Shown here: piece by piece, positions 1,010-37,960 of the stretch
Layout of the letters: every line of letters starts with the position of its first letter
How positions within the stretch are numbered: the stretch's first letter is position 1
Virus record (IMG/VR): IMGVR_UViG_3300026478_000263
DNA length: 37,960 nucleotides
Direction: 5' to 3' (one strand)
Origin: a virus
Lineage: Duplodnaviria; Heunggongvirae; Uroviricota; Caudoviricetes
Notes under the pieces: generated by a model
What the model was told of the DNA's origin: nothing
Seen by the model: the letters and a program-made list of their open reading frames with translations, nothing else
Databases searched by the model: none
Made by a program: the position numbers and the translations under genes

Positions 1010-1968
1010 AAAACAAACTAAACATAGACGATTTGCAAAATTTTTTAGACAGCACAGTTTTAATAACTGGCGCTGGCGGAACTATTGGCAGTGAATTGGT
1101 AAATCAGATACAGGCAAAAACTATTATAGCAGTTGATATCAGCGAATACGCTATCTATAAACTACAGCGCGGCATTGGTGCTAAGAACGTGCATTGTATA
1201 GTCGGAGATGTCAGCGACAAGAAGTTAGTCGACATGATCTTTGACAAATATCAAATAGATTATATTTTTAATGCCGCTGCCTATAAACATGTAGATACAC
1301 TAGAAGATGAAAATAACTTTTATTCTGTAGTTAAGAACAATATTCTATCTGTTATTAATTTATGTAATCATTCGGACGAAGTGAAATGTATGATACACAT
1401 ATCCAGCGACAAGGCAGTAAACCCTACTAACAATATGGGCTACACTAAACTTTGGTGCGAACGTATTGTACAGCAATATGCTAGAACATCTGACACAGAA
1501 ATGAAAATTGTTAGATTTGGAAATGTTTTTAGATCATCGGGATCCTTTGTAGAAACATTAGAGTGGCAGATAGCAAACAATTTGCCAATAACTATTACAG
1601 ATCCTGAAATGAAGCGTTACTTTATTTCAGTACAGGATGCAGTATCGTTAATCATTAATATTGTTCATTTAGAATTTGCCAAAGCAACATACATCTTAGA
1701 TATGGGCGACGAGCAGTCTATAATGGACCTAGTACCTAAAGATTACCCGCAGGTCATAATTGGATGTAGACCTGGAGAGAAACTACGAGAAGAATTATTC
1801 TACGACTACGAACAACTGCAAGATACTAGCAACACTTTGATTAAGAAAATTGAATGGAAACCAGTGCCTATGATAACTAACATAGTCACTTTGCTAGACG
1901 AGTTAAAAAAGGATACAGTATGTCTAAAGACATTAAACGAGATTATCACAACAACAACGATTTTGTAG
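1000..1968 (+). CDS. UDP-GlcNAc 4,6-dehydratase-like SDR (Polysacc_synt_2; CapD/PglF/PseB family)
   Basis: Motifs TGAGGTIG, FNAAAYKHV, ISSDKAVNPTNNMGYTK, VRFGNV, RPGEKLREEL. TTG start overlaps the upstream gene. Confidence 0.9.
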   Translation: MEIKNKLNIDDLQNFLDSTVLITGAGGTIGSELVNQIQAKTIIAVDISEYAIYKLQRGIGAKNVHCIVGDVSDKKLVDMIFDKYQIDYIFNAAAYKHVDTLEDENNFYSVVKNNILSVINLCNHSDEVKCMIHISSDKAVNPTNNMGYTKLWCERIVQQYARTSDTEMKIVRFGNVFRSSGSFVETLEWQIANNLPITITDPEMKRYFISVQDAVSLIINIVHLEFAKATYILDMGDEQSIMDLVPKDYPQVIIGCRPGEKLREELFYDYEQLQDTSNTLIKKIEWKPVPMITNIVTLLDELKKDTVCLKTLNEIITTTTIL

Positions 1969-18666: not shown

Positions 18667-20079
18667 ATGAGAGCCAAAGAATTCTTATCCAAACTTTTTG
18701 AATCAAAATCCAACGTTTACGTAATTGGAGACAGTATTGCCAATGGCATTGCTGGCGCCGGTGGCGTTAGCAAAGAATACACTAATCCTGGAAAAAACAC
18801 TACATTTGTTCTACAAAATCTTGTAACGCCCTTTGTTAAAAGTGGCAAAGCAAAAGGTGCTATTGTTATTTTAAGTAGTGGAGCCGCTAACAGTGGTAAA
18901 GTAGAAACAGAAGACGGAACACAGATTCAATCGGAAAACTTTGGTCCAATTAGTCAACAGATTAAAGCGTTAAAAGATGCAGGAGCATCGGTAGCACTAG
19001 TTGGTGTTGCTGATGGCAAAACACCTTTGCAAAAGCCTACAAAGTTTACTAATGGTAAACAATGGACTGTAGATTACACAGGCGCAAATCAAAAACTATC
19101 CGGCATTGCCGCAGGCGCAGGAGCAAAGTTTTTAGGTTCACTAAACACCTTTGATCCAAACATAGCCAAGGGCGATGGCATACACCCGTTTAACGGATAC
19201 AGTAAACTATTTCAAGCAGGTTCTTCTATTGCCGCACCTGCTAGTAAAGATACAGCAGACAATAAAGAAAAAGATGCTACGGCAGTTCCATTTAGTGTAG
19301 AAGTTCCAGACGGCAAACGTGGCCCATTAATTGCAGATGCACAAAAGGCATTAGAAGCATTGGGCGTACCTTTACCTAAATATGGTGTTGATGGGATTCA
19401 AGGTAAAGAAACAACAGGTGCTATCAAAACCTTCCAAGAGAAGAATGGCTTAGAAGCAACAGGAATTGTTAATCAGCAAACTGCGGATAAAATGAACGCC
19501 ATGCTCAAAGCCAAGCCTGAAGTATTGGCTACTTTAACAAAGAGTACTAACAAGGATGTTAAGTCATTAGACTATAGCAGAGGTGCTGAAGAAGTTGCAG
19601 CCTTAACTAGCACCGAGAGTACGCAAAAGGCAAGAGCAACAGCAGAAAAGTATCTAGGACGTCCAATGGACGACAAAGAATGGAATTACTTGTTACGTGC
19701 TACAACTGCTGAAGCAAGCAATAACAGTAAAGAACAAGCCTATGTTATGGGCGTTATCCTAAACAGAACACGCACAGGTAATTGGGGCGACAATGTTATC
19801 AGTGTGTTAAGAGCTCCAAATCAGTTCCAAGCAGTTACTGGTACAAGATTTGATCCGGGCCCAAGTGCTAACTTTACACGTGGCCCAACTGATAGACAAT
19901 TGGCTAACATTGTAGATGGCGCAATTAATATTCTTCCGCAAGTTCCAACAAATCTCAAATACTTTACAGCGGCTTCTAGTGCGGCCTACGGTGCAGGCAC
20001 TAACATTGGATTTAGAGATAAGATGATAGCCGCTGGCGGCGAAAAGATAGGCGGCACAATATTTGCCGCTCAAGTATAA
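18667..20079 (+). CDS. Modular wall-degrading protein: SGNH hydrolase + peptidoglycan-binding domain + SleB/Hydrolase_2-like domain
   Basis: VYVIGDSIANG and DGIHP (SGNH blocks I and V); QKALEALG..YGVDGIQGKETTGAIKTFQEKNGLEATG (PG_binding_1); AEAS..EQAYVMGVILNR...VLRAPNQFQAV (SleB-like). Confidence 0.75.
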   Translation: MRAKEFLSKLFESKSNVYVIGDSIANGIAGAGGVSKEYTNPGKNTTFVLQNLVTPFVKSGKAKGAIVILSSGAANSGKVETEDGTQIQSENFGPISQQIKALKDAGASVALVGVADGKTPLQKPTKFTNGKQWTVDYTGANQKLSGIAAGAGAKFLGSLNTFDPNIAKGDGIHPFNGYSKLFQAGSSIAAPASKDTADNKEKDATAVPFSVEVPDGKRGPLIADAQKALEALGVPLPKYGVDGIQGKETTGAIKTFQEKNGLEATGIVNQQTADKMNAMLKAKPEVLATLTKSTNKDVKSLDYSRGAEEVAALTSTESTQKARATAEKYLGRPMDDKEWNYLLRATTAEASNNSKEQAYVMGVILNRTRTGNWGDNVISVLRAPNQFQAVTGTRFDPGPSANFTRGPTDRQLANIVDGAINILPQVPTNLKYFTAASSAAYGAGTNIGFRDKMIAAGGEKIGGTIFAAQV

Positions 20080-35418: not shown

Positions 35419-35724
35419 ATGATTACAATAACAGAAACCGCTGAAAAAGAAATTCAAATGGTGCTGGATGAAAGCAAAGAAAAATACCTTAGAATTGCAA
35501 TAGAAGGTGGAGGATGTTCGGGATTTAATTACGTGTTCGATTTTGCAAAAAACAAAGAAGAAGACGACTTTGAATTTGGTAGAATATTAATAGATTCAAT
35601 GAGCATGAACTATTTGCAAGGAGCCAAAGTCGACTTTATCGATGACTTAATGGGCTCTAGTTTTAATATTGAAAATCCAAATGCACAAACAACTTGTGGA
35701 TGTGGAAGTTCGTTTTCAGTTTAA
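35419..35724 (+). CDS. erpA: A-type Fe-S carrier, ErpA-like
   Basis: GGGCSGFNY, IDSMSMNYLQGAKVDF, NPNAQTTCGCGSSFSV. Confidence 0.8.
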   Translation: MITITETAEKEIQMVLDESKEKYLRIAIEGGGCSGFNYVFDFAKNKEEDDFEFGRILIDSMSMNYLQGAKVDFIDDLMGSSFNIENPNAQTTCGCGSSFSV

Positions 35725-35733
35725 GGAGATTAA

Positions 35734-36123
35734 ATGGCTTATTCCGATAGAGTTATAGATCACTACGAAAATCCTCGCAACGTAGGTAGTTTCCCTAAAG
35801 ACGAGGAAGGCGTTGGCACAGGCATGGTGGGAGCACCTGCTTGCGGCGACGTGATGAAGTTACAAATTAAAGTTAATAACGAGGGCATTATTGAGGATGC
35901 GAAATTCAAGACATACGGATGCGGAAGTGCTATTGCTAGTTCATCGTTGGTCACCGAGTGGCTCAAAGGAAAAACGTTGGATCAAGCGGGAGAGATTAAG
36001 AACAGCGCGATTGCCGAAGAACTTGCACTTCCACCCGTTAAAATCCATTGTTCAATTCTTGCGGAAGATGCTATCAAAGCCGCAGTAGCAGACTACAAGG
36101 CAAAAAATGATATCACTGTCTGA
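35734..36123 (+). CDS. iscU: Fe-S scaffold IscU
   Basis: [65 protein letters not shown]. Confidence 0.96.
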
Positions 36124-36427
36124 GAAAGCCGCAGAGCGAGTAAAGATTACACTAGACCGTAGGGGCAAAGGGCTAGGCATTCGATTAGGTGTTAAAACTA
36201 CAGGCTGTAGTGGAATGGCTTATATGATTGAATTTGTTGACGAGCCCACAAAAGAAGATATGAGTTTTGTTAGTCACGGTGTACACGTATTTGTTGATCC
36301 AAAAAGTCTAGCATACCTGGACGGTGTACAAGTTGAATGGGTAAAGAAAGGTCTTAACGAAGGATTTGACTTTACCAATCCAAATGAACGTGACCGTTGT
36401 GGCTGTGGCGAGTCATTTCGAGTATAA
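36107..36427 (+). CDS. iscA: A-type Fe-S carrier IscA
   Basis: [54 protein letters not shown]. Confidence 0.93.
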
Positions 36428-36437
36428 ACCAAAACAC

Positions 36438-36466
36438 TTGACAGTTACCAAAAGTTGTTATATAAT
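36438..36466 (+). promoter_or_regulatory. Consensus sigma70 (early) promoter
   Basis: TTGACA-N17-TATAAT. Confidence 0.9.
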
Positions 36467-36497: not shown

Positions 36498-36887
36498 TTG
36501 AGTATGCACTTAGAAGGCCCGTGGCTTAGTACCACTGGCAAAAAGAAAGGCAAACAAAAGTTTCGTTCTGCTGAACATGCCAAAAAGGCTAGAGAGTTAG
36601 ACGAAAGTTGGAAGGCACTTCAAAAGAAGTGGGCCATCGAAGCCGAAGATAAAAAACGTAAGCGTGGACTAGCGGCACCGACGATGAATCCGGTAGTCAA
36701 CAAGCCATTCGTTAGAGAAACACCAAAGATTGCTAGTTTACCATTTACTGGCGGTCCTTGTTTAAAAGCACCAGATAAAGTTTATACAGGCACAATGATC
36801 AAAGGCATCGGTACTATGCACAAGAGTAATGCAGTTCCAATTTTTAGTAATGAAGAAGCCGTAGAAATCTCCAAAATGAGAAGATAG
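36498..36887 (+). CDS. Basic hypothetical early protein
   Basis: SD GGAGGT, then TTG 36498 or ATG 36504; K/R-rich; GIGTMHKSNAVP motif. Confidence 0.7.
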   Translation: MSMHLEGPWLSTTGKKKGKQKFRSAEHAKKARELDESWKALQKKWAIEAEDKKRKRGLAAPTMNPVVNKPFVRETPKIASLPFTGGPCLKAPDKVYTGTMIKGIGTMHKSNAVPIFSNEEAVEISKMRR

Positions 36888-36929
36888 GGCCTATTTAACT
36901 AGTGATTTTGGAATTATGAACTATATATT

Positions 36930-37196
36930 TGTACGTTTCGCAAAGAAACTAAGATAGTTGGATTAAAGTATGTCACAAGCAGAAACAATCCTGCGAGTCT
37001 TGGCCAATTGGAAACCCGTGAGATTCGGGCGGTCAAGTTCGCCAAAGGCACACAAGTTATGAGATTGTGCGTCCAATGGAGACAACTACACGAACCCAGG
37101 GTTCTTTAATTGAGCCTCGTGAAGTTAACTCCCTTAATGTAATGTTGTTGCGGTGCAATATTATGCCCAAAATAACACTAAGTGAAAGGAGGACTT
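36930..37196 (+). ncRNA. Candidate structured leader / ncRNA upstream of the lysin gene
   Basis: ~270 nt without a convincing ORF; at least 5 hand-identified helices, two UGAGAU T-loop-like loops, and a possible anti-SD helix. Confidence 0.45.
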
Positions 37197-37751
37197 ATGG
37201 AAAAGTCATTTAGATTAGTATCCTATTTTTTAGGATTAGTTATGGTTGCCGTTTTGGTTCAAACTGTAACGACTACAAAGTTTCAGTCGTTGCGTGAACG
37301 AGGCGGGCTATACTCACAGGACGTAGTGTCTATCAAGACACGAGAGCGTCAATTAGATTGTTTGGCAATCAACATTTATCGCGAAGCAGGTTATGAGCCA
37401 TTCGAAGGTAAGGTTGCTGTTGCCCAAGTAACAATGAACCGTGTTGCATCAGGCAAATTTGGACAAGATGTCTGCGGTGTCGTTTACCAAAAGAACGTAA
37501 TTATGGAAAAAGTTGTGTGCCAATTTTCATGGGCATGTGACTCTGCGGCAAAAACTAAACCTGTAAACAAGGAGGCTTATAATGAAAGTTACGAAGTTGC
37601 TAAGAAGGTTTTACTTGAGAATTTCAGATTGGACGTTCTCAAAGATGCTTTATACTATCATGCCTCCTACGTCAACCCAAGATGGAATTTGGAAAAAATA
37701 GGCAAAATTGGACAACACATTTTTTATAAAGGCAAGGAAACCAAAATATGA
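37197..37751 (+). CDS. Cell wall hydrolase, SleB/Hydrolase_2 family, with N-terminal signal/anchor
   Basis: SD AAAGGAGGA, ATG 37197; CLAINIYREAG.EPFEGKVAVAQVTMNRV, VCGVVYQ, CQFSW, ALYYHA, IGQHIFY. Confidence 0.92.
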   Translation: MEKSFRLVSYFLGLVMVAVLVQTVTTTKFQSLRERGGLYSQDVVSIKTRERQLDCLAINIYREAGYEPFEGKVAVAQVTMNRVASGKFGQDVCGVVYQKNVIMEKVVCQFSWACDSAAKTKPVNKEAYNESYEVAKKVLLENFRLDVLKDALYYHASYVNPRWNLEKIGKIGQHIFYKGKETKI

Positions 37752-37960
37752 TTAATAATATTGATCAACTCAAAGAGTTTGTTACTACCAAAGTATCTCA
37801 AATTTCCGCAGAAACATTTGGTTGGTTAGCAGTCATTGTATTACACGCTAGTACCATTCCAAGTTTGTTAGCAGTAATGAGTGGACTTACAGATAGACTA
37901 CCAGCAGTTGATTTGGTACTGTTAGTTTGGTCCGGACTTGCGCTGTTGTTTGTCAAAGCC
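37748..37960 (+). CDS. Membrane protein, 3'-truncated (possible holin or small TM protein)
   Basis: ATGA-coupled to the lysin gene; MINNIDQLKEF...FGWLAVIVLHASTIPSLLAVMSG...LVLLVWSGLALLFVKA; open to the window end. Confidence 0.7.
   Translation, partial: MINNIDQLKEFVTTKVSQISAETFGWLAVIVLHASTIPSLLAVMSGLTDRLPAVDLVLLVWSGLALLFVKA

Follow-up and report, generated by a model that had tools for sequence, protein, structure and literature searches.

Leader RNAs of phages and the sleB locus

Structured RNAs have been described in potential 5′ UTRs of T4-like phages from aquatic metagenomes, where the manA (RF01745) and wcaG (RF01761) motifs of T4-like cyanophages are riboswitch candidates with no assigned ligand (PMC2864571). 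These leader motifs are the nearest described kind to the RNA reported here, which likewise occupies a potential 5′ UTR of a T4-like phage. However, manA and wcaG precede sugar, nucleotide, photosynthesis or exopolysaccharide genes, whereas our element precedes a wall hydrolase gene, lacks an Rfam match and has an explicit anti-SD/anti-anti-SD layout. A lytic enzyme is the target in gene e (lysozyme) of T4, in which RNA structure hides the ribosome site and prevents early lysis; the structure is a simple helix, and the late promoters omit its 5′ strand (PMC3014915). RNA structure is also predicted over the ribosome site of a lytic enzyme in our phage, but a conserved late promoter (36922-27) lies upstream of all stems of a whole 260-nt fold and promoter choice therefore cannot be the switch. 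The analogy to T4 lysozyme drawn in a preliminary description of this DNA thus holds for the outcome only.

Several other RNAs invite comparison. The loop at 37019-25 of the window, on a G-C-closed stem, fits the terminal T-loop consensus (YGNRA)NY published for FMN (RF00050) and cobalamin modules (PMC2258182; bioRxiv 10.1101/2022.12.26.521914), as it does in 75 of 135 copies; 37060-65 does not. Unlike those riboswitches, the element has no FMN or cobalamin core and does without the T-loop in 60 of 135 copies, and a search with RF00050 gave 0 matches in the leader's genome while being positive in 7 of 14 control genomes. Type A copies resemble the interdigitated double T-loop of T-box stem I and RNase P in that a single stem carries a 5′ bulge with a T-loop-like pentamer, then a short helix and, at its apex, a T-loop. 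Here, in contrast, the apical T-loop is dispensable (absent in the same 60/135) and its partner is a distant bulge; the Rfam search of the element returned neither T-box nor RNase P. The c-di-AMP riboswitch (ydaO/yuaA, RF00379) is a large leader RNA that regulates cell-wall hydrolase genes, and with its covariance model the window and the homolog-bearing loci scanned gave nothing, even when E was relaxed to 10. More generally, Rfam 15 gave no match over the element at gathering and E-value thresholds, the best E values (1.5-4) belonging to unrelated eukaryotic or plastid families, and ARAGORN found no tRNA or tmRNA in the window. Likenesses to TPP, SAM-I, cobalamin, a tmRNA tag and the hammerhead were dropped because Rfam gave them no support, as was one to a permuted group I or II intron, for which the search covered the unpermuted order.

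Fremin et al. (2023) mined viral candidate structured RNAs from IMG/VR intergenic regions (PMC10690425). Our element is likewise intergenic and from the same collection; since their models are at most 151 nt, the 265-nt element is not among them whole, and fragments of it could be. Blastn against 50,697 annotated phage records gave no match, SleB relatives in those records are below 60% identical, and literature searches found no description of the RNA.

The window, by which we mean the whole stretch of 37,960 nucleotides analysed, is part of a linear virus record of 104,860 bases. As that record is estimated to be 30% complete, the phage would be about 350 kb; contigs of related phages reach 353 kb. 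The genome is that of a large freshwater T4-like phage, with ribonucleotide reductase, tail and PAAR genes in the window, many tRNAs and a permuted tmRNA. The tmRNA (88592-88994 of the record, outside the window) has an unusually long tag. A tRNA with a CUA anticodon, of the amber suppressor type, lies at 94685-94758 of the record, also outside the window, and the gene just ahead of the leader has TAG as its stop codon. On one homolog-bearing contig a tmRNA of betaproteobacterial type scores above threshold, a weak hint at that host group. The leader fills a 309-nt gap between a gene for a basic 128-aa protein and a gene for a SleB-type hydrolase, in the following setting:

36438-36466, plus strand: sigma-70 promoter for the upstream gene, a perfect match at 12/12 positions
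36501-36887, plus strand: conserved basic 128-aa protein, phrog_27048, function not annotated; usual upstream neighbour of the RNA
36922-36927, plus strand: T4-type late-promoter variant TATATA, a few nt before the first stem; at least 97% conserved, TAAATA in one divergent clade
37197-37751, plus strand: SleB-type cell-wall hydrolase, PF07486 (Hydrolase_2), E 1e-26, with an N-terminal hydrophobic anchor; putative regulated gene
37748-37960, plus strand: 100-aa membrane protein overlapping sleB and running past the window end; holin candidate only

The role of this SleB as an endolysin is taken from annotation, and the window holds a second endolysin-like gene (18667-20079, 470 aa, with PHROG lysis matches) with which it may share the work; both points weigh against the timing switch proposed below. 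The overlapping membrane protein is followed by two lipoprotein-like ORFs; none of the three matched a named family. The C-terminal motif of the basic 128-aa protein is invariant. Further upstream, at 35419-36427, are three genes that by eye resemble Fe-S assembly genes, an IscU-like one between two A-type carriers.

The genome has ATAAATA-type late promoters, 11 of 22 sites being intergenic. The late-promoter variant that the preliminary description saw near 36921 proved to be conserved in the homologs, with TATATA becoming TAAATA in one divergent clade, which puts the probable start of the RNA near 36932. No terminator-like site was found between the sigma-70 promoter and the leader; earlier transcripts may therefore read into the leader and sleB, which would make translational blocking useful. 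To our knowledge, little is understood of how large phages with exported, signal-anchored wall hydrolases time lysis, and we know of few validated regulatory RNAs of such size in lytic phages.

Conserved fold of the leader

Homologs were collected from uncultured T4-like phage contigs by searches that took the two flanking proteins and DNA patterns as queries. The RNA spans 36933-37192 (about 265 bases) and was found in 158 distinct near-complete copies, of which 149 lie immediately 5′ of sleB, seven are truncated by contig ends, one has suffered a deletion and one a transposase-like insertion. Hence 149 of 151 copies with room downstream directly precede sleB and one RlpA-type operon also carries the RNA, a consistent 5′ UTR position before coherent genes of the kind looked for in riboswitches. 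Below 95% identity 97 copies remained (mean identity 0.74, minimum 0.53), and a covariance model of the element scored 270 bits on the window and 100 bits on the most divergent copy. The gap before sleB is held at about 290-317 nt across homologs.

The leader's single-sequence fold beats shuffles only modestly (z = -2.1), and it is the homologs that settle that the structure is real. In a fitted alignment of 101 rows, 93.7% of cells were paired versus 27-47% with partners slid, and double changes occurred in 22 of 60 pairs versus 9-18 with partners slid. Our own G-test, set against a tree-based null, found significant covariation at six pairs in P2 and P6 on a structure-blind alignment and at nine in P2, P4 and P6 on the fitted one. 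At least 97% conservation was seen at 119 of 280 positions, many of them unpaired. The domain is thus supported by covariation and has conserved unpaired nucleotides, as is expected of riboswitches. The parts of the fold are as follows:

36935-36949, plus strand: P1, a 5-bp stem (36935-39/36945-49) with a GNRA-like loop of 4-5 nt, always G...A; from homolog pairing
36949-36958, plus strand: near-invariant strand able to form an alternative helix, P2ext, with 36993-37003, exclusive with P3; from conservation
36960-36991, plus strand: P2, a variable hairpin (stem 36960-64/36987-91) with three significantly covarying pairs
36993-37042, plus strand: P3, 36999-37005/37031-37 extended by 36993-97/37038-42; from homolog pairing
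37006-37014, plus strand: bulge inside P3, U-K-N-R-A, T-loop-like in 99 of 100; from conservation
37015-37029, plus strand: P3a, a hairpin inside P3 (stem 37015-18/37026-29); from homolog pairing
37019-37025, plus strand: L3a, the loop of P3a, in T-loop or U-rich kissing form; likely partner the bulge at 37093-98, from co-change
37047-37074, plus strand: P4, a variable hairpin with three significantly covarying pairs, including its stem 37051-55/37065-69; loop not a conserved T-loop
37078-37132, plus strand: P5, a long interrupted hairpin whose basal GGAG (37078-81) holds the anti-SD CUCC (37129-32); from homolog pairing
37129-37191, plus strand: P6 and putative expression platform, with a covarying hairpin (37143-77), a conserved internal loop and a CUCC for which the SD GGAG (37188-91) is a possible partner

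P3 is conserved on one side: its 5′ strand is invariant, and each of the 15 distinct strand combinations forms the helix, at -13 to -19 kcal/mol. Divergent copies, in which the second helix segment is swapped with pairing retained, confirm the base of P5. Covariation was found in the 3′ hairpin stem of P6 (37143-49/37171-77). A non-canonical pair, 37136-37184, also co-changes, all nine changes of 37136 falling on branches where 37184 changes, but on the global null it does not reach significance. This co-change places lower P6 in a register that continues into the CUCC:SD helix. Taken together, the comparison of homologs shows the leader as a six-stem fold (P1-P6) fixed at the predicted sleB ribosome site.

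Much of this agrees with the preliminary description, whose quoted sequences were all found where it had placed them and which had folded the leader by hand. Its GTTTC/GAAAC helix (P1) is conserved in the 101-row alignment, and CTTGGCC/GGTCAAG (P3, now further extended), the CCCG/CGGG stem of P3a, CACAA/TTGTG (P4, which also covaries) and the inner P5 helices CACGA/TCGTG (37089-93/37117-21) and GGTTC/GAGCC (37100-04/37112-16) are likewise conserved among homologs. Other proposals did not survive. One pair of GCAG/CTGC (36979-94) forms in only 16 of 100 homologs, the real stem there being that of P2, and the suggested competing hairpin (37092-97/37099-104) is broken in about 40%. A pair of T-loop hairpins had been proposed. 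The second loop (37060-65) is no T-loop: it is variable, shares positions with the stem that should close it and has disappeared from several clades. The first is a T-loop in 75 of 135 copies but UAUUUU in 52, a loop that would pair by Watson-Crick kissing. New features are the 3′ hairpin, the upstream GGAG and the contact described below. The proposal of an unrecognised structured RNA has been borne out by conservation, by nine covarying pairs in three stems beyond the tree-based null upstream of sleB and by the lack of any Rfam family over the element; a conserved peptide, which it raised as the competing possibility, is excluded.

Among 135 copies, L3a is mainly a 7-nt T-loop (75) or UAUUUU (52). 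The UAUUUU loop always occurs with its complement in the P5 bulge at 37093-98 and the T-loop form never does, giving an alternation between a T-loop and a 6-bp kissing form, with 0 of 127 mismatched. Since P4, which lies between loop and bulge, shows all four combinations of its type with loop type, and type B requires at least seven changes on the sleB tree, linkage alone is unlikely to account for the association. One haplotype carries a compensatory U-A to A-U change at two bulged T-loop positions, the kind of long-range pair to two bulged nucleotides described for type-II T-loops (PMC2258182). Loops also paired better with their own partners than with permuted ones (13 combinations, p = 0.0008, phylogeny ignored), but tested against the tree-based null the contact falls short of significance (E about 1.6). 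The contact therefore likely docks P3a on P5, short of proof. A natural swap of a T-loop for a kissing loop at one site is of RNA-structure interest regardless of function.

A predicted translational switch and competing explanations

A cis-regulatory role for the RNA is likely. The preliminary description had left this open between a cis-regulatory element and an independent ncRNA; the former is favoured because the fold includes the sleB ribosome site and because ORF insertions always fall upstream of the promoter. Nine longer gaps hold an extra ORF, and in 9/9 RNA-bearing cases it lies upstream of the promoter with the RNA intact and none stands between RNA and gene. We predict, as the reading we consider reasonably probable, that the leader is a cis-acting translational switch that times a signal-anchored lytic enzyme. 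It would control translation initiation of sleB, and probably of the overlapping membrane protein, through two states. In state A, P3 and P5 would be formed, with CUCC held by the upstream GGAG and the SD largely free (ON). In state B, the 5′ strand of P3 would pair upstream, 37006-27 would pair with 37091-111 and CUCC would lie on the SD (OFF). The balance would be set by a trigger that stabilises the docked 5′ domain, which could be a phage protein (the basic upstream one, for instance), a small molecule or the kinetics of folding. The outcome would be an exported, potentially holin-independent lytic enzyme delayed to late infection.

The case for this switch lies in the second partners of three conserved strands: 36993-37003 can pair with 36949-58, 37006-27 with 37091-111 (up to about 20 bp) and CUCC with the SD. 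The invariant CUCC is 99-100% pairable, whether with GGAG at 37078-81, leaving the ribosome site free, or with the sleB SD, blocking it. This core of the anti-SD helix in the preliminary description stands, while its AAGT/ACTT extension is kept only in part, at about 70-85% per pair. The pairings of state B do not exclude one another and stand at 95.5% paired over the homologs. Adjacent stems vary freely, but the SD and both of its complements do not change, and variants of CUCC to CUCU still pair with both partners. For 51 homologs, constrained ensembles, whose nearest-neighbour energies omit tertiary contacts, gave a predicted difference of B minus A with a median of 1.1 kcal/mol and a 5-95% range from -1.0 to 2.7. 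Matched halves of the state B helix reached -14.7 kcal/mol versus -13.0 +/- 0.25 for permuted ones (55 haplotypes), and a B-type 5′ domain is predicted as an intermediate when the growing chain reaches 37112-25.

Other observations count against a switch. The mutually exclusive pairings of the expression platform are conserved and predicted to be near-isoenergetic, but helices found in state B alone are nearly invariant and hence without covariation support. Covariation cannot test a switch made of invariant helices; with the SD itself fixed, a sequestration switch would be expected to keep both the SD's complement and the second strand that this complement pairs with unchanged. Divergent clades no longer have the outer part of the B helix, P3 is far stronger than its alternative (-4 to -7 kcal/mol), and sister phages have sleB behind shorter, unrelated or different leaders, a few contigs lacking the 5′ domain. 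Whatever the trigger, we conclude that this is a real, uncatalogued structured RNA family and that a conformational switch is plausible. The element likely acts like a riboswitch-type translational leader outside every Rfam family tested. That it forms a phage-specific riboswitch class, sensing a host metabolite, second messenger or cell-wall precursor through a T-loop-or-kissing tertiary contact to time translation of the lytic enzyme, is rather unlikely; the discovery of a ligand would make the element a new class of riboswitch linked to lysis. The design lends itself to testing, as a single 4-nt strand has two named partners and natural variants supply ready-made compensatory mutants.

A static pseudoknotted leader with one fold, serving as a platform for a repressor or activator protein or as a stabiliser that sets a fixed low translation, is an explanation we hold to be unlikely. 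All nine significantly covarying pairs belong to state A, the loop-bulge contact fits a static pseudoknot inside it equally well, many of the highly conserved positions are unpaired, and the protein-bound leaders of T4 gp32 and gp43 set a precedent (PMC3014915). However, a single fold leaves the second perfect partners of three strands and their near-equal predicted energies unexplained. Quite improbable, in our judgement, is an independent ncRNA or ribozyme that the late promoter would produce and that would do no more than share a transcript with sleB. Its own conserved promoter, a size and wealth of invariant unpaired nucleotides like those of large ncRNAs, and sister clades that carry sleB without the RNA would suit it, but there is no conserved terminator (the sole match, 37092-104, is at chance level and not conserved), the conserved fold extends into the SD, Rfam gave no ribozyme or intron match, and the RNA is confined to wall-hydrolase operons, apart from the one insertion (L179) and the one deletion (L265).

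The 5-bp stem and GNRA-like pentaloop of P1 at the transcript start also recall a boxB- or put-like processive antitermination element, at which the basic upstream protein would bind P1 and allow read-through of the long downstream envelope operon. Language-model features of that protein weakly resemble N antiterminators (0.81-0.83), but this score is within the range of shuffled proteins, a 27-sequence profile matched no N protein in Pfam or PDB, leaders without the RNA are flanked by the protein too, and conservation of the anti-SD would go unexplained; we regard antitermination as very doubtful. The protein is nonetheless a candidate RNA-binding partner of the leader, as a lead only. A leader-peptide attenuator or short coding region, for which a near-invariant AUG at 37076 and a start-stop AUG-UAA at 37137-42 could speak, is hardly credible. 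The ORF from 37076 runs for 7-45 codons in all three frames relative to sleB (34/27/39), a variability of length and frame that refutes the conserved-peptide form, and variation at 37137-38 is explained by pairing with 37182-83.

Variant copies and other sleB leaders

The most divergent copy, on the near-identical contigs L501 and L510, precedes not sleB but an 85-aa exported-looking ORF and then a DPBB_1/RlpA-type lytic transglycosylase (DPBB_1, E 1e-23). This single case suggests that the RNA may track wall-hydrolase function rather than one gene. In L179, a 418-aa ORF that by eye is transposase/TnpB-like interrupts the last RNA hairpin just behind the P6 5′ strand and pushes sleB about 1.8 kb away. 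Four copies (L184, L199, L240, L255) have an internally deleted 5′ domain with P5/P6 and the SD intact, and sleB is intact in the three translated; these are either natural mutants or assembly artefacts. In L376, L298 and L321 the first hairpin is tandemly duplicated at the RNA 5′ end. The stretch from the basic gene to the RNA is an insertion hot spot (L035, L039, L056, L108, L113, L140, L151, L152, L153) with ORFs of 117-181 aa, seven of which show by eye an HNH-like S.DRID pattern; Pfam gave no match for the three tested. In GTDB the RNA was found on one phage-like contig in a MAG (L476), probably a binned phage contig and thus no evidence on host.

Against the short or alternative sleB leaders, the covariance model detected nothing except a 13-bit 3′-end match in L430. 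Two shorter conserved leader types occupy the same position before sleB in sister clades, one in L103, L111, L125, L143, L155, L159, L160 and L457 (130-190 nt before sleB) and the other in L077, L080, L124, L132, L154 and L430, each with a similar promoter-like motif ahead of it. In L403 and L406, a different multi-stem leader of about 250 nt (about 1240-1500, plus strand) precedes sleB, with apparent compensatory changes between the two; the covariance model did not detect it, nor did Rfam match it (L406). In the more distant T4-like phages L468, L469 and L474, the 300 nt before sleB appear by eye to hold a two-piece tmRNA with an alanine-ending tag.
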